This document shows, piece after piece, positions 5,771 to 58,613 of a stretch of 64,000 nucleotides of DNA. Both the position numbers and the translations under genes were made by a program. The stretch is from Escherichia phage humlepung. The DNA lies in sequence record MN850564.1. One strand, 5' to 3'. The notes under the pieces were generated by a model, which was not told the DNA's origin, ran no database searches, and worked only from the letters and a program-made list of their open reading frames with translations. Every line of letters begins with the position of its first letter. Within the stretch, counting starts at the first letter, position 1.

Positions 5771-13768
<7,998 letters not shown>

Positions 13769-45554: not shown

Positions 45555-46070
45555 ATGTACCTGTCAAACCTGAAACGTTCTGCTGCAATGTCAGTGTTAA
45601 GACTCAGCTTTGAGGAACGTCAAGAGTTCATTGACTCCCACCAATATGACCCTTCAAACTCTAATCACATGATTCTCTGGAATCGTGATAGCACTCGTGA
45701 AAGAGCACTATTCCGCTACTACCCACACTACACCATAGACAACCTGTATGAATGTTTTGTTGTGAAGAACACCATTACAGTACTCAATAAACTTTGCAGA
45801 TACACAGGTAGTCAATCCTTCACATTAGGCCACCACAAACCTGTTACAAAGGGTGGTGAGCATCACTGTGCAAACTGGTTTATCCAGACTAAACTTGATA
45901 ACCAGAAGCAAGGAGATAACCTTCTAAGCACTCCTAAGATGACCTATGAAGAGCAAGAGAAATATATCAAAAATAATATGCCAGATGTGCTTGACAACAA
46001 CTATACAGATTTGGCAATATCTCTCCTGTTGAAGTTCGAGACAGTTTATAGGGCGACTTACAATGGCTAA
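45555..46070 (+). CDS. HNH endonuclease (putative homing endonuclease)
   Basis: LGHHKPVTKGGEHHCANW...N HNH-like motif; RBS GGAGA. Confidence 0.5.
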   Translation: MYLSNLKRSAAMSVLRLSFEERQEFIDSHQYDPSNSNHMILWNRDSTRERALFRYYPHYTIDNLYECFVVKNTITVLNKLCRYTGSQSFTLGHHKPVTKGGEHHCANWFIQTKLDNQKQGDNLLSTPKMTYEEQEKYIKNNMPDVLDNNYTDLAISLLLKFETVYRATYNG

Positions 46071-46341
46071 AGAAAAGTGGGAGATTTTACCACTAGTTAG
46101 TGAAGGCGGTAATGGTTGTGAAATGTACATGATACGTGGTCATGTTCCAGAACCAATTGCACTTGAGATGGTAAACAACTTTACAGATGGCTCTTACAAA
46201 GACTTAGGGGAGCCAACTATAAAGCAGCAATGGGTAAAGCCTGTACCAGACAGCACAGGTAACTGTAGTGTACTTTATCACGTTGTAGACCCTGCAAAAT
46301 GTAAATCTGCAATGGCAGTAACAAACGTAACTTTTGATTGA
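46063..46341 (+). CDS. hypothetical protein
   Basis: 92 aa; overlapping start. Confidence 0.45.
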   Translation: MAKEKWEILPLVSEGGNGCEMYMIRGHVPEPIALEMVNNFTDGSYKDLGEPTIKQQWVKPVPDSTGNCSVLYHVVDPAKCKSAMAVTNVTFD

Positions 46342-46352
46342 GAGAGAAAACT

Positions 46353-47234
46353 ATGAAAACTGTTATTGAAGCCGTCGTCACCGCACAAGAGAAATTCTTC
46401 CACACAGAAAAATTTAATATCATTCAATTCCCATCTGGAGAAATTGGTGGAAACTTCTCTGAAGATTTTGTTAAGTTTACTGAGCGTAATGCTGGTAAGA
46501 TTGATAATGTTATAATTACTGTACAGGGATATGACAAGGATACACTGTTTGCATTAGCTTTGGCTAAGGATGCCGTTGACAGTCTTGTTCCCCAGAAATC
46601 AGCGATGAAAACCGTTGTTTTCGGGTTCTTACCAAATGCTCGATATGACCGCCACATGTTCAAAGGTGATGCAGCAGCACTGAAAGTCTTTGCCAACCTA
46701 GTTAATGCAATGGGCTTTGATGCAGTATGTGCTCTTGACCCTCACAGTAATGTTGCAGAAAACTTATTTAAGTGTTTTCAGAGCATGAAGCAAAAAGATG
46801 TGGCAGTACACTTTGCAAGTGACCCACGCATTGATTTCTTGGTAGCCCCAGATGCAGGTGCAGCTAAGAAGACTGAAGATGCCGCTAAAGAGGTGGATAA
46901 ACCATATATCACAATGTCTAAGGTGCGCAATCTTAAGACTGGAGAAATCACTGGTATGCGAATCCTTGACGATGTTGATTTGACCGATAAAACTGTCATG
47001 ATTCTTGATGATATCTGTGATGGTGGTCGAACCTTCGTAGAGGCAGCTAAACACCTACGTGAAGCAGGTGCAAAACGTGTGGAACTCTATGTAACTCATG
47101 GTATTTTCTCTAAAGGTGTTGAAAACTTACTTGACAATGGTATTGACCATATCTACACTACAAACACTTTAGGTGAAGCTAAAGACCGTGGCTTAACACA
47201 TTACGCCCAAGTTACTGTAGCAACCATTGATTGA
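46353..47234 (+). CDS. ribose-phosphate pyrophosphokinase-like enzyme (candidate ADP-ribose pyrophosphokinase of NARP1)
   Basis: PRTase-type PRPP/ribose-phosphate binding loop VMILDDICDGGRTF; start ATG 46353 after GAGAGAGAAAA (track start TTG). Confidence 0.7.
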   Translation: MKTVIEAVVTAQEKFFHTEKFNIIQFPSGEIGGNFSEDFVKFTERNAGKIDNVIITVQGYDKDTLFALALAKDAVDSLVPQKSAMKTVVFGFLPNARYDRHMFKGDAAALKVFANLVNAMGFDAVCALDPHSNVAENLFKCFQSMKQKDVAVHFASDPRIDFLVAPDAGAAKKTEDAAKEVDKPYITMSKVRNLKTGEITGMRILDDVDLTDKTVMILDDICDGGRTFVEAAKHLREAGAKRVELYVTHGIFSKGVENLLDNGIDHIYTTNTLGEAKDRGLTHYAQVTVATID

Positions 47235-47243
47235 AACTTTATA

Positions 47244-47265
47244 GGGGCTTGAAAGCCCCATTTTG
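47244..47265 (+). terminator. putative terminator/attenuator between the Prs-like and NAMPT-like genes
   Basis: GGGGCT-TGAA-AGCCCC followed by ATTTTG. Confidence 0.4.
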
Positions 47266-47279
47266 AGAGAGATTAAAAG

Positions 47280-49061
47280 ATGACTAAATCGCTTTACGCA
47301 GTACCAGCAGGTTTAAACGCAGATGCTTACAAATCTGGTCATGTTTACCAGTACCCTAGTGCAACAGAATACTTGATGTTCAACCTGACACCACGTAGTG
47401 ACAAATGGTTTAACAGCCCCTTAGCAATTGATGGTGTAGTAGCTTTTGGTATTCAACGTTTCGTTAAAGATTACCTGATAGACCACTGGAACGCCACTTT
47501 CTTTGAACGTGATAAAAAAGAAGCAATTGACGAAATCTTAGAAGTTATGAATGGTGTTCTGGGGAAAGATGCTATCGGTCGAGAGCATTGGGAAGCACTT
47601 CACGACTTAGGTTATCTACCAGTTGAAGTGTACGCTGTAGAAGAAGGCACAGTTGTCCCGATGCGTGTCCCAATGATTGTCTTCCAGAACACTGTTTCAG
47701 GTTTCCATTGGGTAGCAGGTTATCTAGAAGACGCTTTCTCTGCTGAGATTTGGAAGACTTGCACCATTGCAACTATTGCATTGCACTACAAACGTATCTG
47801 TAAGAAGTGGGCTGACCTTACTTGCGACAATGAATTACATTTACCTTATCAGTGCCATGACTTTGCTATGCGTGGTATGTCCGGCTTTACCGATGACGCA
47901 TTTAATGCTGTAGGTCACTTAACCAGCTTTAAAGGAACTGATAGCTTCCCTGCTGTATACACGGCTAAACGCATCTATGGACAGTCTTACCCAATTTCTG
48001 ATATTGGTAGTTCTGTACCAGCCACTGAACACTCTGTAATGTGTGCAAACATTGCTTGGGAAGGTGGTAATGAATTGATTGAAGAGGAAAGACGCTTTAA
48101 AGGTGAGTTGCAAACCTTCCGTCGTTTCTTAACAGAAACTTACCCAACTGGTATTGCAAGTATTGTTTCAGATACTTATAACTTCTGGAGAACTGTGTCA
48201 GAAATCTTACCAGCACTTCGTAAAGAAATTATGGAACGTGATGGTAAGCTGGTAATTCGCCCTGACTCTGGAGACCCTGTACATATTGTCACAGGCTATA
48301 AAGCAATCCACTTAGAGTGTGCTAAGAAGGCTTATTACGAACACTTAAGCAAGCTTGAAGCCAGCGACACAATGTTGAATGCTGTTCTGAACATGAAGCT
48401 TGAAAACATCAATTATGGTATTGCTGGATGGCTACTGTCAGAAGGCTACGAAATGGTTGTTGACAGAGAAGACTTTGAAGTTGCTGATACAGTGCTGTTG
48501 AAAAACGCTTATATGGTTGGTTCTGCAAACGTTGTAACACGTCCTGTAGCTGAGATTGATGGAGCTATTAAGACACTGTACAACATCTTTGGGGGAACTA
48601 TTAACTCTAAAGGGTTTAAGGTACTGGATGAGCATATCGGACTTATCTATGGTGACTCTATCACGCTGGAACGTGCAAACGAAATCCTGAAGCGTCTGTA
48701 TGAAATGGGTTTTGCAAGCTCTAACGTAGTGTTTGGCGTAGGTTCTTACACTTACCAGTACATGACTCGTGACACCTTTGCATTTGCTGTCAAAGCAACT
48801 CTTGCAAGCATTGGTGGTAAAGAGATTATGCTTGCAAAAGACCCTAAAACAGATAGTGGTGTTAAGAAATCTGCCTTTGGTGGTGTAGCACCTATGTGGG
48901 ATGGTGACAAGCTGAAAGCTATAGATGGCTATGGATTCCAGAGTTTTGCAGATGTACTTGACCACCCAGCTTGTGCCTTACGTTTAGTCTTTAGTGACTC
49001 TGAGCAGTTCGGTTACACAACTCTTGGGGATATTCGAAATAATATTGACAAGCAGCTTTAA
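47280..49061 (+). CDS. nadV: nicotinamide phosphoribosyltransferase-like enzyme (candidate Namat of NARP1)
   Basis: 593 aa NAMPT/PBEF-family sized protein directly downstream of the Prs-like gene. Confidence 0.7.
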   Translation: MTKSLYAVPAGLNADAYKSGHVYQYPSATEYLMFNLTPRSDKWFNSPLAIDGVVAFGIQRFVKDYLIDHWNATFFERDKKEAIDEILEVMNGVLGKDAIGREHWEALHDLGYLPVEVYAVEEGTVVPMRVPMIVFQNTVSGFHWVAGYLEDAFSAEIWKTCTIATIALHYKRICKKWADLTCDNELHLPYQCHDFAMRGMSGFTDDAFNAVGHLTSFKGTDSFPAVYTAKRIYGQSYPISDIGSSVPATEHSVMCANIAWEGGNELIEEERRFKGELQTFRRFLTETYPTGIASIVSDTYNFWRTVSEILPALRKEIMERDGKLVIRPDSGDPVHIVTGYKAIHLECAKKAYYEHLSKLEASDTMLNAVLNMKLENINYGIAGWLLSEGYEMVVDREDFEVADTVLLKNAYMVGSANVVTRPVAEIDGAIKTLYNIFGGTINSKGFKVLDEHIGLIYGDSITLERANEILKRLYEMGFASSNVVFGVGSYTYQYMTRDTFAFAVKATLASIGGKEIMLAKDPKTDSGVKKSAFGGVAPMWDGDKLKAIDGYGFQSFADVLDHPACALRLVFSDSEQFGYTTLGDIRNNIDKQL

Positions 49062-49075
49062 AAGTATATGATAAG

Positions 49076-49100
49076 AGGCTCCTACGGGAGCCTTTTTAAT
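49076..49100 (+). terminator. rho-independent terminator
   Basis: AGGCTCC-TACG-GGAGCCT followed by T5. Confidence 0.6.
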
Positions 49101-49114
49101 TTCTGGAGAAAACT

Positions 49115-49450
49115 ATGAAAATCAAAGAGATGAACATCAACATTGTCTTAGAAGAACGTTGGGAGAACATCAAGAAGCCTGAAGATGGTCATAAGTTCCT
49201 TAACAAAATCTTGGTAGCAGCTAAAGAAGAACTGACTGGAAAGGTTGCAGCAGCAATCACAATAAAGGTTTGTGTAAAAGGTCTTCCACAACATCACCAG
49301 TTTGCACTTGACGAGTTTAAAGAAAGCTTCTACAATCCAAACAAACAGATGCTTGAAAGTAACTTTGCAGTATCTACAAGTATCGTTCATGACAGAAGCT
49401 TTATCCTTTACAAAAATATGAGAGGTGAGTCATGCAAGCATATTGGATAG
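49115..49450 (+). CDS. hypothetical protein
   Basis: 111 aa; RBS GGAGAA. Confidence 0.45.
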   Translation: MKIKEMNINIVLEERWENIKKPEDGHKFLNKILVAAKEELTGKVAAAITIKVCVKGLPQHHQFALDEFKESFYNPNKQMLESNFAVSTSIVHDRSFILYKNMRGESCKHIG

Positions 49451-53206: not shown

Positions 53207-53232
53207 AAAGGCTGCTTCGGCGGCCTTTTTTA
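53207..53232 (+). terminator. rho-independent terminator
   Basis: AGGCTGC-TTCG-GCGGCCT followed by T6. Confidence 0.55.
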
Positions 53233-53292
53233 TTTGTATTTTGTGCAGAGTGCTGTATAATTGTTGTCACGATAAACTAAACAGGAGAACCA

Positions 53293-54524: not shown

Positions 54525-54989
54525 ATGAACAATATCATTACGGTAGCACTGGACGTTACGGCAAACAAATCTGAAGTAGTTCGTAACATTATCAAGAGCA
54601 ACTTTGAGGGTAAAATTTTCCGTGCTGTCAACGTAAAAGCAGACGGTAACATCCGAGAGTATCGTGCTCTTTTGAATGTTAAGAAACACGTAAAAGGTTC
54701 TGGCTCAACCACAGCACACAAAGAAAACCTGATGACTATCTATGATATGGGGATGGCTTCAGAATTAGGTGCTGAAGGTATTGTTAAAGAAGGTGCTCCG
54801 TATCGCTCTTTCAATCTGGAAACTGCTCTTATGCTTTCCTTTACAAGTGGTTCTAAAACAACTACTTATCTCTTTACTGATGCTGCAACGGTATCTGCTA
54901 TCAAGGATAGCACTGTCAAAGCTGGGGTAGCTGCTGCTGCAAAAGCTTCTTCGATGGCTGCAAATGTCCTTGCTAAAGTCCTCGGTTAA
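54525..54989 (+). CDS. hypothetical protein
   Basis: 154 aa; followed by strong terminator. Confidence 0.5.
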   Translation: MNNIITVALDVTANKSEVVRNIIKSNFEGKIFRAVNVKADGNIREYRALLNVKKHVKGSGSTTAHKENLMTIYDMGMASELGAEGIVKEGAPYRSFNLETALMLSFTSGSKTTTYLFTDAATVSAIKDSTVKAGVAAAAKASSMAANVLAKVLG

Positions 54990-55000
54990 GGTTAAGATAC

Positions 55001-55024
55001 AGGCTCCTTCGGGAGCCTTTTTCA
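55001..55024 (+). terminator. rho-independent terminator
   Basis: AGGCTCC-TTCG-GGAGCCT followed by T5. Confidence 0.6.
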
Positions 55025-55041
55025 TTTCAGGAGATTGTTAA

Positions 55042-55389
55042 ATGACATTTAAAGAGTTCTGTCAAGCTACTTTCATAATTGTTTTCTTAGTTGGTGCAGG
55101 TGTCTGGGGAGGATACTCTTACAGAGACTATCAAGTTGCTGAAGCTGAGCTAAATAATGAGAAACTAATAAGTGTTGCTAAAGATGCTTATCAGGAAGGT
55201 TTAGCCACACTCAGCACCAATTACAAAAATGATTTGAAAGATGTGCTTGCTAAGAATAAGCATACAAAAGAGGTACTAACGTATGAAAAGACTAAGCCAG
55301 AGTTTTATAATGTTTGTGTTACTGATAATTATGTCAGGGTGTTCAACGAACAAAGTGAGCAGTACATTCAAAAACTCCCAAGTAAGTGA
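55042..55389 (+). CDS. i-spanin-like protein (N-terminal TM plus helical periplasmic domain)
   Basis: 115 aa; TM segment ATFIIVFLVGAGVWGGYSY; RBS AGGAGA; 3-prime end overlapped by lipoprotein gene. Confidence 0.4.
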   Translation: MTFKEFCQATFIIVFLVGAGVWGGYSYRDYQVAEAELNNEKLISVAKDAYQEGLATLSTNYKNDLKDVLAKNKHTKEVLTYEKTKPEFYNVCVTDNYVRVFNEQSEQYIQKLPSK

Positions 55390-55552
55390 GAGTGATAAGT
55401 ACACTCAAGAAGAATCACGGTATATCATCAAAGGCAACACAGGTAGTGATGTAGCAGCAGCACTTGAGTTCTACCGTGACGGATTTTACCAGTGTACAAT
55501 CAAAGCTAATAACCTTATTGACATGATTTTATTAGGGAATAAGCAGCAATGA
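55283..55552 (+). CDS. o-spanin-like lipoprotein (overlapping, +1 frame)
   Basis: 89 aa; MKRLSQSFIMFVLLIIMSGC lipobox-like signal; starts inside preceding gene. Confidence 0.4.
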   Translation: MKRLSQSFIMFVLLIIMSGCSTNKVSSTFKNSQVSESDKYTQEESRYIIKGNTGSDVAAALEFYRDGFYQCTIKANNLIDMILLGNKQQ

Positions 55553-55818
55553 CAGAGAACGAAGATACTTTCTATGTAGAAGGGTACTTACTGCTACCAC
55601 GACCAAAAGAAACTTATATGCGGGTTGATTTCTCACCAACCATTATGGATAACGTGATGTGTCATATCTTTATGCAAGGTGTCACAGCACAACTTAAGCA
55701 TGTTGGTAAAGAGTGCAAAATAAAGGTTGACACTCATCCAGAAATCAAAGAGAATCACTACACATGGTTCTTACCAGACTCTAAAGAAATCTTAGCAGTT
55801 CTTAAAACGAGGAAGTAA
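55549..55818 (+). CDS. hypothetical protein
   Basis: 89 aa; ATGA-coupled. Confidence 0.45.
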   Translation: MTENEDTFYVEGYLLLPRPKETYMRVDFSPTIMDNVMCHIFMQGVTAQLKHVGKECKIKVDTHPEIKENHYTWFLPDSKEILAVLKTRK

Positions 55819-55820
55819 CT

Positions 55821-56150
55821 ATGCAGATTAATGGAAGAGACTTTGTAGCCGTTTACTACGACGAGAAAGATAAAGAAGTTGGTGTAGCACAAGTAACCTA
55901 TGGCAATGGTAAGTGGCTATATGGAACAATCGCAGTAGTAGGAACAAGAAGTGATACAAAAACTTTTAAAGATTGTGTTGACCTTCTTGAAGAATCCGTC
56001 CACAATCATTGGTGTCTGATATGGATGACTGACAATGAAGTGATGGAACGTTTCAAAAAGATTGATATCAACATAGACAGCATTGAGCATGTTGACTTGT
56101 ATGAACTGACTGAGAAGGTAAATTATGAAAGTAATTCTAGCCAGAGATAA
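55821..56150 (+). CDS. hypothetical protein
   Basis: 109 aa; RBS GAGGAAG. Confidence 0.45.
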   Translation: MQINGRDFVAVYYDEKDKEVGVAQVTYGNGKWLYGTIAVVGTRSDTKTFKDCVDLLEESVHNHWCLIWMTDNEVMERFKKIDINIDSIEHVDLYELTEKVNYESNSSQR

Positions 56151-56352
56151 AAAGACACGGAAAATTATCCGGTCAGCAGTATTTATTGGAAGAAATGAAG
56201 TGATTCCTTTTACAGCAAATGATGTGATAGTCTACAGGAAAAAATTAGCATTCAGTTATTGCTTACGTGGCTTTATCTCCCAGCCATTAGAAGATTTTAA
56301 AAATCGTTGTGGTAAAGGCATCATCATTCAAGAGGCAATTATTCATGGCTGA
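56125..56352 (+). CDS. hypothetical protein
   Basis: 75 aa. Confidence 0.4.
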   Translation: MKVILARDKKTRKIIRSAVFIGRNEVIPFTANDVIVYRKKLAFSYCLRGFISQPLEDFKNRCGKGIIIQEAIIHG

Positions 56353-56545
56353 CTTCTGCAAAGACTGTGCTATCGAGATGTTTGGGCGTGATACAGGTGA
56401 TTTAAAAGGTCTTATCACTGAAGATGACTTTAAAGCTGGCTATGCAATGCCAGTAATCTGTGAAGGTTGTGGATGTATCTGGGTAGACCATGAGGGGCAA
56501 CGTGTAAAACCTTCAGAAGATAAAGAATCTTGGGAGAGATGTTAA
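56345..56545 (+). CDS. small zinc-ribbon protein
   Basis: ATG 56345; CKDC...CEGCGC; coupled to macro-domain gene. Confidence 0.4.
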   Translation: MADFCKDCAIEMFGRDTGDLKGLITEDDFKAGYAMPVICEGCGCIWVDHEGQRVKPSEDKESWERC

Positions 56546-57331
56546 ATGGGTATTGTAAAAATAATCAATGGTGATATCTTTGCCGAATTTGATAAAGGTA
56601 AGTTTGACATCATCGGTCACGGTTGCAACTGTATGAATTTAATGGGTGCAGGTATCGCTGACAAGATTTCTAAACTTTACCCAAAAGCATATGAGACCGA
56701 TACAGAAGTTTATCTATATGCAGGTGGTATAGGACACAAACCCTGTGAAAATTTACTGGGTAATTTCTCTGTAGCACGTTTAAAACAAGGTCGAATAGCT
56801 AACCTTTACACTCAGCTTAAGACTGGTAAAGATGCCCGATACAGTGCTTTAGAATCATCTTTGAAACAGCTTAACAGATACTGTGAAGTCAATCAGTTGA
56901 AGAAAGTCGGGTTACCTATGATTGGCGCAGGTATCGGTGGACTAGACCCTCAAGCCGTCACAGTTATCATTAATCAGGTGATGAAGAGTGTAGATGTTTA
57001 TCTGTATGTCTACGAAGGAGAGATGTACCACAAGTTACGCTCAGGTTGGAATAACTACTGTGAACCAGAATACTTTGCAGGTGTAGTAATGTTCACAGAT
57101 GATACAGTTACCCTCTTCAGACGAAGAAAAGGTAAGATACATCAAAGTAACCCTCCGGTTGAGAAGATGTCTCTAAGTAACGCTCTAGTTACCCACCTGT
57201 CGAAGAGCAATCACAGAATTGCAGTAACATTTGGCAGTGATGCGGATACTTATATCTATGCAAGAACTGATGAGGATATCGAGTTAATCTTCTCTTCACC
57301 AGAGCTTACCTTCTTAGACGCAAAGAACTAA
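56546..57331 (+). CDS. macro-domain (ADP-ribose binding/hydrolase) protein with C-terminal extension
   Basis: N-terminus INGDIFAEF...DIIGHGCNCMNLMGAGIADKI fits the macro-domain GDI...NAAN...GGGV pattern; 261 aa. Confidence 0.55.
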   Translation: MGIVKIINGDIFAEFDKGKFDIIGHGCNCMNLMGAGIADKISKLYPKAYETDTEVYLYAGGIGHKPCENLLGNFSVARLKQGRIANLYTQLKTGKDARYSALESSLKQLNRYCEVNQLKKVGLPMIGAGIGGLDPQAVTVIINQVMKSVDVYLYVYEGEMYHKLRSGWNNYCEPEYFAGVVMFTDDTVTLFRRRKGKIHQSNPPVEKMSLSNALVTHLSKSNHRIAVTFGSDADTYIYARTDEDIELIFSSPELTFLDAKN

Positions 57332-57405
57332 GAAACTTCGTAGCATATTCACAATAGACTAAGCCTTTCTTATCTGGTAAATTTTTTCAGGTAAGGAGGG
57401 CTTTT

Positions 57406-57585
57406 TCATTTTAGAATTGTGCAGGTAGAGTTATGTAGAGAAATCTATAGAGAAAATTTTGAACTCCAAAGAGAAAATTCATTTTCAAACTGTGCAGGTA
57501 ATCTCCAAAGAGCTTTTTCATTTTCAAAACGTGCAGACCCCGCTCAGGTCGGGCAAGAAAAATCATTTTAGAATTGTGCAGGTAG
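57406..57585 (+). repeat. iteron-like direct repeats (4 copies of ~23 bp TCATTTT(A/C)(G/A)AA(T/C)(T/C)GTGCAGGTA)
   Basis: Copies at 57406, 57479, 57518, 57563; copies 1 and 4 identical; CTCCAAAGAG also repeated. Confidence 0.6.
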
Positions 57586-57600
57586 GTTTTTATAGACAGC

Positions 57601-57640
57601 CAGCCCAACCCCTCTCCCCCTCTTACTCCCCCTCTCCCCA
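57601..57640 (+). repeat. polypyrimidine C-rich tract
   Basis: CAGCCCAACCCCTCTCCCCCTCTTACTCCCCCTCTCCCC, between iterons and strong promoter. Confidence 0.5.
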
Positions 57641-57760
57641 AAAGTCAAGAGAAAAATTTGTAGCGGATTGAAAAATAATTCTTGATTTGCGTTCTGTTTT
57701 GTGGTAGTCGTGCGCACCCGTTTCATTACAGTTTTGCCAAAAATATTTTTAAGATTTTTA

Positions 57761-57852
57761 TTGACTCTTTGAACGTGGTTATCTAATATTTACATCAACG
57801 GGGAGGGAATGACCTTCCCCACTAAATAAAATCCTAAACTGGAGATTCAAAA
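57761..57852 (+). promoter_or_regulatory. cassette type 1 (promoter TTGACT-N17-TAATAT, 5-prime hairpin, conserved leader with GGAG)
   Basis: Hairpin GGGGAGGGAATGACCTTCCCC at 57800-57820; leader ACTAAATAAAATCCTAAACTGGAGATTCAAAAATG. Confidence 0.65.
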
Positions 57853-58236
57853 ATGGCATACCGCGCACCGAAATTCATCAATAAAGAAAATTTTCGTAAT
57901 GTATTAGAGAAGGTGCTTGATGAAAAATTTAACGGCAAAATAATTGTTGTTCACGCATACAATTTCAAGTATGATATCAACGGGAATAAAATCAACCATT
58001 ACACGGCAACTATGTTAGATGGCAATCTTTCAAGTGAAAAAGCCGTACTGAATGCACTTGCCGGACGTGGAAAAAACCTGATAAGATGCGATAAGAGACG
58101 TTATCAGGGTGGCGCATATGGTTACGATGATGCTATTTATCATCTTGAAAATATGGGCTATCAAGTAGAAAAAGCTGGAGTATCACAAATCATCGGCAGT
58201 GATGGCTATGTAACAATCTTCAAAATTAACAAATAA
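57853..58236 (+). CDS. cassette gene A, hypothetical
   Basis: 127 aa; starts ATG GCA in conserved leader. Confidence 0.55.
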   Translation: MAYRAPKFINKENFRNVLEKVLDEKFNGKIIVVHAYNFKYDINGNKINHYTATMLDGNLSSEKAVLNALAGRGKNLIRCDKRRYQGGAYGYDDAIYHLENMGYQVEKAGVSQIIGSDGYVTIFKINK

Positions 58237-58322
58237 AGTACTTTACAGGGGGCTTATAGTTCGATAAAGTAAGCCCCAGATAAAGAGCTTTACCACTAAA
58301 TCCTAAATTGGAGAACTTAAAA
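58234..58322 (+). repeat. cassette type 2 (palindrome TAAAGTACTTTA, hairpin, conserved leader)
   Basis: Palindrome begins with upstream stop codon; hairpin GGGGCTTATAGTTCGATAAAGTAAGCCCC without U-tract; shared leader/SD. Confidence 0.6.
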
Positions 58323-58613
58323 ATGGCTATTATCAAAAACGTTGTAATTCCCGCAAAAACTCGTGATGACGCTCGCATCATGGCGAAAAAGTTAGGCGGG
58401 AAAGTGGTTGACAATGGAAAACAATCTGCTGTAAGATGGGGTGTGAAGGCTGATAAACAGTTGAAGTTAAAAAATTCACCGATAAACCTTTTTACATGTG
58501 TAAACACTATCGGGAAGACAAATGTATACACGAAAAAAGCATATATTAGACGCGTAGCATTAACATCCCCCATTCGTACAATGAGAAGTTATGCAAAGCT
58601 GAAAATTAACTGA
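58323..58613 (+). CDS. cassette gene B, small basic protein
   Basis: ATG 58323 (track start is TTG); 96 aa; MAII N-terminus. Confidence 0.5.
   Translation: MAIIKNVVIPAKTRDDARIMAKKLGGKVVDNGKQSAVRWGVKADKQLKLKNSPINLFTCVNTIGKTNVYTKKAYIRRVALTSPIRTMRSYAKLKIN

Follow-up and report, generated by a model that had tools for sequence, protein, structure and literature searches.

What do the two adjoining genes at positions 56345-57331 of Escherichia phage humlepung contribute to a phage of this kind? The window, by which we mean the whole stretch of 64,000 nucleotides that was analysed (sequence record MN850564.1), comes from a Felix O1-like myovirus (Felixounavirus, Ounavirinae), and the 2.8 kb round the locus is 92-94% identical to dozens of Felixounavirus phages of Escherichia, Salmonella and Shigella. 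A first-pass annotation, made from the letters alone, had placed here a macrodomain protein with a C-terminal extension, coupled to a small zinc-ribbon protein. Its coordinates proved exact, enclosing two open reading frames (ORFs) of 66 and 261 amino acids (aa) on the plus strand. We propose that the longer one may encode a two-domain phage counter-defence enzyme. Its macrodomain is an ordinary member of a known, partly characterised family of phage counter-defence proteins, and its C-terminal domain (CTD) is an orphan and the sole new element. The gene and its two parts are:

56546-57331, plus strand: macro-CTD gene, 261 aa plus the stop codon, PHROG 335 / VOG1382, the Tk.4/Adpp family of phage macrodomains
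56546-57016, plus strand: macrodomain, aa 1-157
57014-57328, plus strand: CTD, aa 157-261, an orphan alpha+beta module

The fold and the family of this protein are established by Pfam, PHROG 335, a profile search of PDB sequences and an AlphaFold2 model, which agree with one another and with the first reading of a macrodomain. Pfam PF01661 (Macro) matches aa 25-141 with 32.3 bits against a gathering threshold of 22, and PHROG 335, labelled "phosphatase", matches aa 1-260 (E 1e-111). Among PDB sequences, the family profile finds BT1257 (9e-23), SCO6735 (5e3b, 9e-21), TARG1 (1e-19), DarG (4e-19) and Poa1p (5e-16). The model of the full-length protein (19 homologues) has a predicted local distance difference test score (pLDDT) of 86.9 and a predicted template-modelling score (pTM) of 0.85, and displays the three-layer alpha/beta/alpha macro fold. 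More than 200 GenBank Felixounavirus records carry the gene with about 95% identity; the labels in use there are "putative phosphatase", "macro domain protein", "O-acetyl-ADP-ribose deacetylase" and "Poa1p_like". By tblastn, relatives occur in 2,784 phage records, with full-length coverage in 257.

The same first reading had pointed to ADP-ribose and NAD+ biology and, more cautiously, to the toxin DarT. The studied relatives uphold the general link, since they are T4 Tk.4, which bears on DarTG2, and Adpp, which belongs to NARP1-AP and bears on aRES; the DarT suggestion matches the closest of them. In a transposon screen (HIDEN-SEQ), tk.4 was the one gene of T4 that proved conditionally necessary on DarTG2 hosts, a clean tk.4 knockout sensitises T4 to DarTG2, and the protein was named AdfM (anti-DarT factor macrodomain), its authors inferring that it removes ADP-ribose from DNA thymidine (10.1101/2025.11.20.689424). 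The NAD+ phosphorylase aRES, a RES-domain enzyme, produces ADP-ribose (ADPR)-1''-phosphate; purified Adpp of Vibrio phage Gary turns this compound into ADP-ribose, and the Adps-Adpp-Namat operon ("NARP1-AP") overcomes aRES (10.64898/2026.01.28.702374). One macrodomain family has thereby been given different counter-defence roles by two preprints of 2025-2026, anti-DarTG2 for Tk.4 and anti-aRES phosphatase for Adpp, and the question becomes which of these, if either, the window protein would fulfil.

The active site narrows the choice. In 19 diverse family members, H25, N28, G36, A38, P46, G72, Q90, P124 and G127 are invariant, and glycine-rich loops are found at aa 33-38 (MGAGIA) and aa 126-132 (IGAGIGG). 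N28 aligns with N23 of PhiKZ AdfM, the catalytic Asn of that protein, whose mutation reduces activity (PMC13309987). Both glycine-rich loops and N28 are conserved in the window macrodomain, whose predicted activity is ADP-ribose binding and hydrolysis. The column of Q90 is that of the catalytic Lys of TARG1 (K84) and DarG (K80), and of the PTK motif of PhiKZ AdfM, and TARG1 D125 aligns with G131 of the window protein. Since the Gln is invariant at the Lys column, the family, Tk.4 included, cannot use the lysine mechanism of TARG1 and DarG. Residues 1-157 would then bind ADP-ribose and hydrolyse the group on C1'' of the distal ribose by way of the family-invariant H25, N28 and Q90, not of that lysine.

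What follows the Gln differs between branches of the family. The window loop after Q90 reads TQLKTGKDARY and its T4 Tk.4 equivalent TQFQPGPNFEY, with no aromatic insertion; the window loop has the same length as those of Tk.4, TARG1 and PhiKZ AdfM, all of which are linked to macromolecule-bound ADP-ribose. This short TQxxPGxN loop is common to the window clade, T4 Tk.4, Kuttervirus and many metagenomic relatives. By contrast, every NARP1-adjacent macrodomain inspected, in a sample limited to parts 1-2 of Osterman Table S1 (about 80 entries from about a dozen lineages), has an aromatic-rich insertion of 5-9 residues right after the Gln, as in QYNYGREEG, QYHWHAHKVAPG, QEFYGYN and QYDYRRAYG; this is an empirical feature of the examples inspected and not a criterion set by the Osterman authors. 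The three IMG/VR loci in which a macro gene lies between Namat and Adps (L069, L071 and L078) are all of the long-loop type, and the residue before the Gln is usually G, A or S in Adpp-type proteins versus T in the window protein. We infer that the loop type may mark a functional split in the family.

The C-terminal extension noticed at first sight is real. It spans about 105 aa (aa 157-261); 18 homologues keep its length, though its sequence only weakly, and it is predicted to fold on its own: helix, six strands and helix, with the same secondary structure whether or not the macrodomain is present, and a pLDDT of 80 when modelled alone. The CTD had no match in Pfam or among PDB sequences, and in BFVD it matched nothing but its own family. 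Neither the rest of the window nor the related loci contained a paralogue. An exhaustive search of 1.84 billion representatives with the CTD profile returned nothing but fusions to a macrodomain, fragments of the gene and repeat proteins judged spurious. The giant repeat proteins among them (retrotransposon polyprotein, YDG/MBG adhesin, sortilin, PQQ propellers) were discarded because their scores were summed over multiple stretches, and matches of 114 and 54 aa, considered as free-standing relatives, were rejected as fragments of the same gene. We also considered and rejected the CTD as a DarG-like mimic of single-stranded DNA (ssDNA) or a nucleic-acid binder, as it has no conserved charge (pI 4.6-9.5) and no match to the DarG models.

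In a neighbour-joining tree, every protein that carries an extension falls into a single clade (98% bootstrap), which means that the fusion arose once. Three Ounavirinae-like relatives (Hafnia phage Zyzzx and the IMG/VR loci L041 and L042) have tails of about 100 aa without detectable similarity to the window CTD or to each other. As a separate observation, L041 and L042 have Gln in place of the otherwise invariant His25. More broadly, the macro family has gained diverse C-terminal add-ons repeatedly: P0026 carries cREC_REC (PF20274), the relative in Erwinia phage FBB1 has an acidic tail, and two further relatives (L068 and L089) have tails of 50-90 aa.

The two domains evolve at different rates, the CTD diverging about twice as fast (mean pairwise identity 30% versus 58% for the macrodomain). 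Against the window protein, P0002 has 81% identity in the macrodomain and 54% in the CTD, and P0009 has 53% and 20%. One metagenomic contig from a Felixounavirus, L008, matches the window closely on either side of the gene, with 94.4% identity across 9.5 kb upstream and 97% downstream; its positions 10140-10930, corresponding to about 56690-57500 of the window, have 45-60% nucleotide identity, and its macro-CTD protein 41%. Near-identical flanks round a 41%-identical protein mean that the macro-CTD gene has been replaced by another allele. On the left, the break in L008 falls no further than about 50 codons into the macro gene; another ORF that has diverged there is the one of 75 aa at 56125-56352, and in several GenBank Felixounaviruses the match to the query stops after its first 216-345 nt. 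The macro-CTD locus is an allele-replacement hotspot. Proteins that clash directly with host factors typically diverge fast and undergo allele replacement, and these arms-race signatures count in favour of a counter-defence role. From both, we infer that the CTD is the recognition module of the protein: it may act as a lineage-specific, rapidly diverging protein-recognition adaptor, possibly in contact with a toxin, like the second domain of DarG.

Any assignment of the enzyme has to reckon with a second system of the same phage. The NARP1-like pair to which the first-pass annotation had alluded is present, each enzyme being 40% identical to its Gary counterpart, and hairpins resembling terminators lie between this pair and the macro gene:

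46338-47234, plus strand: Adps, PRPS-like ADP-ribose pyrophosphokinase of NARP1 (Pfam Pribosyltran and Pribosyl_synth; E 6e-41 to Gary Adps)
47280-49061, plus strand: Namat, NAMPT-like nicotinamide ADP-ribose transferase of NARP1 (Pfam NAPRTase 6e-35; E 4e-68 to Gary Namat)
49076-49103: related terminator-like hairpin, 15 nt after the Namat stop
about 53215-53235: related terminator-like hairpin, after rIIB
55001-55028, plus strand: terminator-like hairpin AGGCTCCTTCGGGAGCCT followed by a T-run, after the ORF at 54525-54989

Judged from its sequence, 46338-49061 is a genuine NARP1 pair of the Bas63 type. NARP1 was discovered in the Felixounavirus Bas63, as genes 79-80 (10.1101/2024.02.11.579819), and the window phage is of the same genus. 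The small ORFs flanking the pair (46063-46341 and 49115-49450) had no Pfam match. From the Namat stop to the macro start there are 7,485 bp and 12 ORFs, including rIIA, rIIB, a lysin, a PNK-like gene and spanins. The hairpin-plus-T-run element (consensus CTTCGGGAGCC TTTTCATTT) has four matches in the window versus none expected, the fourth at about 36508, and is likely an intrinsic terminator family punctuating the rightward early/middle region; three of the hairpins stand between the NARP1 unit and the one that the macro gene closes. The NARP1-AP preprint detects Adpp by a macro gene within two genes of NARP1, and its Table S1 includes no Escherichia or Salmonella phage (10.64898/2026.01.28.702374). 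With 7,485 bp, 12 ORFs and the hairpins in between, the window gene falls outside the Adpp operon so defined. The order Namat, rIIA-rIIB, macro is nevertheless kept in relatives down to 33-41% macro identity, L006-L008 among them, and Namat lies 9.3-9.6 kb 5' of the macro gene in 20 of the 22 IMG/VR loci with a full flank, an arrangement that may be plain conserved genome order in Ounavirinae.

Weighing these data, we tentatively favour a Tk.4-like reversal of DarT2-type DNA ADP-ribosylation over an Adpp role, as the best single candidate and short of an even chance. The enzyme would strip ADP-ribose from thymidine in phage ssDNA modified by a DarT2-type toxin, and so let replication proceed. 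This reading is favoured by the highest similarity being to Tk.4, by the Tk.4-type short loop without the insertion of the NARP1-adjacent Adpp, by the position of the gene apart from the NARP1 unit, and by a layout of macrodomain plus second domain that parallels DarG (PMC11825919). Several points weigh against it. No enzyme activity has been shown for Tk.4, whose DNA-hydrolase mechanism was inferred by its authors (10.1101/2025.11.20.689424). With Q90 for the catalytic Lys and Gly for D125, DarG-like chemistry is not simply transferable. The phage carries NARP1, and NARP1-associated Otagovirus macrodomains, with 35-36% identity to the window protein, are about as close to it as Tk.4 is. The backbone of the tree among the Tk.4, Adpp and window clades is not robustly supported, for which reason assigning function by phylogeny was dropped. 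Finally, we found no literature data on the phenotype of Felixounaviruses on DarTG2 hosts; a PhageMaP study of Bas63 does not mention the gene (PMC11482910), the DarTG1 paper contains no Felixounavirus data, and the text of the aRES preprint does not name the phages tested (10.64898/2026.01.28.702374).

An Adpp role exercised in trans is possible, if on balance doubtful: the protein would be an ADPR-1''-phosphate phosphatase that feeds ADP-ribose from the aRES product to the phage's own Adps and Namat, a split NARP1-AP. It belongs to the same family as the characterised Gary Adpp (27% identity over the whole domain, E 9e-14), with all family-invariant residues in common, the NARP1 of this phage, on which it depends, is orthologous to the founding Bas63 system, Namat keeps its distance upstream even in the divergent L006-L008, and aRES occurs in E. 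coli, Klebsiella and Enterobacter, overlapping the host range of the phage; the older annotation as phosphatase or Poa1p-like would fit as well. Set against this are the position outside the two-gene rule, the absence of Escherichia and Salmonella phages from the published table, the hairpins between the two units and the lack of the aromatic insertion, which all NARP1-adjacent macrodomains inspected and the three IMG/VR loci possess, and the co-occurrence with NARP1 may reflect nothing but Ounavirinae genome order. The two roles are not mutually exclusive, and an unlikely variant is that the same enzyme also supplies NARP1 with ADP-ribose from ADPR-1''-phosphate, linking an anti-DarT arm with an NAD+-reconstitution arm. 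An extension of the DNA-directed reading that we hold to be unlikely turns the CTD into a hypervariable target-recognition module and the whole protein into a DarG-like, two-pronged orphan antitoxin, which would both reverse the modification and bind the toxin or another defence protein, allele swaps tracking variants of host defence. Less likely again is another or broader specificity, directed by the CTD, for ADP-ribose on RNA (CmdT-type) or on protein (host ART toxins, own modifications), or for O-acetyl-ADP-ribose deacetylation. Macrodomains are often promiscuous, the varied C-terminal add-ons of the family suggest varied targeting, and among the best PDB sequence relatives are TARG1 and SCO6735, the latter presumably a protein-Glu de-MARylase that also has no TARG1 lysine. 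No member of the phage family has, on the other side, been shown to act on protein or RNA, and T-even phages (the T4/Tk.4 group) are still restricted by the mRNA ADP-ribosyltransferase CmdTAC (PMC11618068), so that the Tk.4 family does not counter this RNA target at any rate. That the protein is a non-catalytic binder, sequestering ADP-ribose-derived immune signals (gcADPR, His-ADPR) like the Tad sponges, is the most improbable of these alternatives by a wide measure: ADPR derivatives are ligands of macrodomains, and the ThsA macrodomains of Thoeris are sensors of His-ADPR, but H25, N28, Q90 and both glycine loops are family-invariant, as expected of an enzyme, and two family members have enzyme-type roles.

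The remaining part of the locus is the small gene upstream, with the signal that may serve translation of the macro gene:

56345-56545, plus strand: zinc-ribbon ORF, 66 aa, PHROG 2210, with an ATG start and its TAA at 56543-56545
56532-56538, plus strand: Shine-Dalgarno-like GGGAGAG, 7 nt 5' of the macro ATG and within the 3' end of the zinc-ribbon ORF, read from the sequence

The macro ATG abuts the zinc-ribbon TAA with no gap, and the start of the zinc-ribbon ORF overlaps the preceding 75-aa ORF by 8 nt. Overlapping and abutting ORFs make this a tightly packed gene string that closes a rightward block, and a 500-bp intergenic region follows 3' of the macro-CTD gene. As GGGAGAG lies inside the zinc-ribbon ORF, it could couple translation of the macro gene to that of its neighbour. 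The putative zinc ribbon, which also has a VDHEG motif, had no match in Pfam or the PDB; its two CxxC pairs (C5, C8, C39 and C42) do not vary among five divergent homologues (Ounavirinae, T5, Vequintavirus). The family occurs in 835 phage records, with 58-75% identity across unrelated groups, and its members come from Ounavirinae, Demerecviridae, Vequintavirinae and siphoviruses of Pseudomonas and Stenotrophomonas.

Are the two genes a functional pair, as the first-pass annotation had it? An obligate two-gene system would have the ribbon and the macro-CTD protein translationally coupled and interacting, perhaps with the ribbon as a DNA-binding or regulatory subunit. The abutting stop and start and the Shine-Dalgarno-like run in the upstream ORF speak for it, as does the distribution among IMG/VR loci: the ribbon lies directly 5' of the macro-CTD gene in all 29 Ounavirinae loci with this type of CTD, at macro identities as low as 41%, and is missing from the 10-kb neighbourhoods of 50 other macro genes. 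A further point in its favour comes from the distant relative L007 (35% macro identity), where a different ORF of 63 aa with two CxxC pairs (9810-10001), of no evident sequence similarity to the window ribbon, overlaps the macro start; this could be a chance recurrence or a convergent pairing with the macro gene. The ribbon is, however, far more widespread than its neighbour (835 records versus 257 for macro-CTD). The T5 homologue, ORF059 (L003 2501-2701), sits amid tRNA genes and homing endonucleases with no adjoining macro gene, and that of a Vequintavirus, Bas56_0041 (L004 2501-2701), has a tail-fibre gene as its neighbour and no macro gene near it. Two genes intervene between ribbon and macro gene in Hafnia phage Zyzzx, and L006 has no ribbon upstream of its macro gene. 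Nor do the two proteins co-vary: in L008 the ribbon is 98% identical while the adjoining macro-CTD protein is 41% and its CTD 20% identical. We regard an obligate two-gene system as improbable. Of the proposed pairing, the CxxC pairs and the adjacency stand and the functional coupling finds no support; we read the adjacency as conserved Ounavirinae synteny with possible translational coupling and not as evidence of a functional pair, and the zinc-ribbon gene would be a conserved neighbour and not a demonstrated partner. The 66-aa protein is unusually well conserved and is a candidate for study on its own.

The intergenic region 3' of the macro gene has features of its own. Between 57406 and 57581, a 19-nt motif, TCATTTTMRAAHYGTGCAG, occurs in four direct copies within repeats of about 34 nt that are spaced 39-73 bp apart. 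The motif is confined to this interval in the 64-kb window (four matches versus none expected), and relatives vary in length across the repeat region. A sigma-70-like promoter, TTGACT-17-TAATAT, lies 3' of the repeats at 57761-57789, and an Rfam scan of 55000-58500 gave no match. A protein-binding array and the remnant of a mobile insertion site are both possibilities for the repeats.

The Felixounavirus protein represents a third, uncharacterised branch of its family, in which a Tk.4-type active-site loop is found on an Adpp-type NARP1 genomic background. This mixture lets it serve as a natural test of two questions: is the family bifunctional, and which features of the sequence decide the choice of substrate? 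In addition, the orphan CTD is a candidate specificity or protein-binding module, of a sort often found where a protein meets host immunity directly. Because Bas63 is a genetically tractable Felixounavirus that has already been used to define NARP1, these predictions can be tested directly. Should the protein be no more than a macro hydrolase carrying a structural tail, what remains would be a routine annotation.

How does the protein compare with the systems already known? T4 Tk.4 is the closest experimentally studied relative, with 35% identity over aa 3-157 of the window protein (E 6e-24). The two have in common PHROG 335, the HGCNC and NLYTQ motifs, the short loop and the Gln in place of the TARG1/DarG Lys, and both come from large virulent enterobacterial myoviruses. 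They differ in architecture, Tk.4 being a stand-alone macrodomain of 155 aa to which the window protein adds its 105-aa orphan domain, and the tree, the backbone of which is weak, does not resolve them as sister groups. T4 is not known to carry NARP1. Gary Adpp, which is 35% identical to Tk.4, comes from a phage that, like that of the window, carries both Adps and Namat. Adpp is encoded within the NARP1 operon, whereas the window gene lies 7.5 kb 3' of NARP1, beyond the terminator-like hairpins; Adpp-type proteins have the aromatic insertion after the Gln and no C-terminal domain, and the window protein is the reverse on both counts.

Similarity to the DarG-like enzymes is more distant. PhiKZ gp104, a DarG-like enzyme shown to de-ADP-ribosylate DNA (PMC13309987), has only 24% identity to the window protein (E 1e-4) and the Lys where the latter has Gln. 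It too has been called AdfM, a name that therefore covers two distinct macrodomain proteins, T4 Tk.4 with Gln and PhiKZ gp104 with Lys, and transfer of annotation between them needs care. For DarG itself, the NCBIfam equivalog NF048014 reaches 47.6 bits where its cut-off is 250, the match taking in only positions 4-153 of the 338 in the model, and the PADLOC model matches only the macro part of the window protein. The DarT-binding C-terminal domain of DarG is unrelated to the window CTD in sequence and fold, and the window locus has neither such a domain nor an adjoining darT gene. The closest structural class is that of yeast Poa1p and human TARG1 (Poa1p-like / ALC1-like): NCBI names relatives of the window protein "Poa1p_like family protein with Macro domain", and the PDB entry of TARG1 bears the name O-acetyl-ADP-ribose deacetylase 1.

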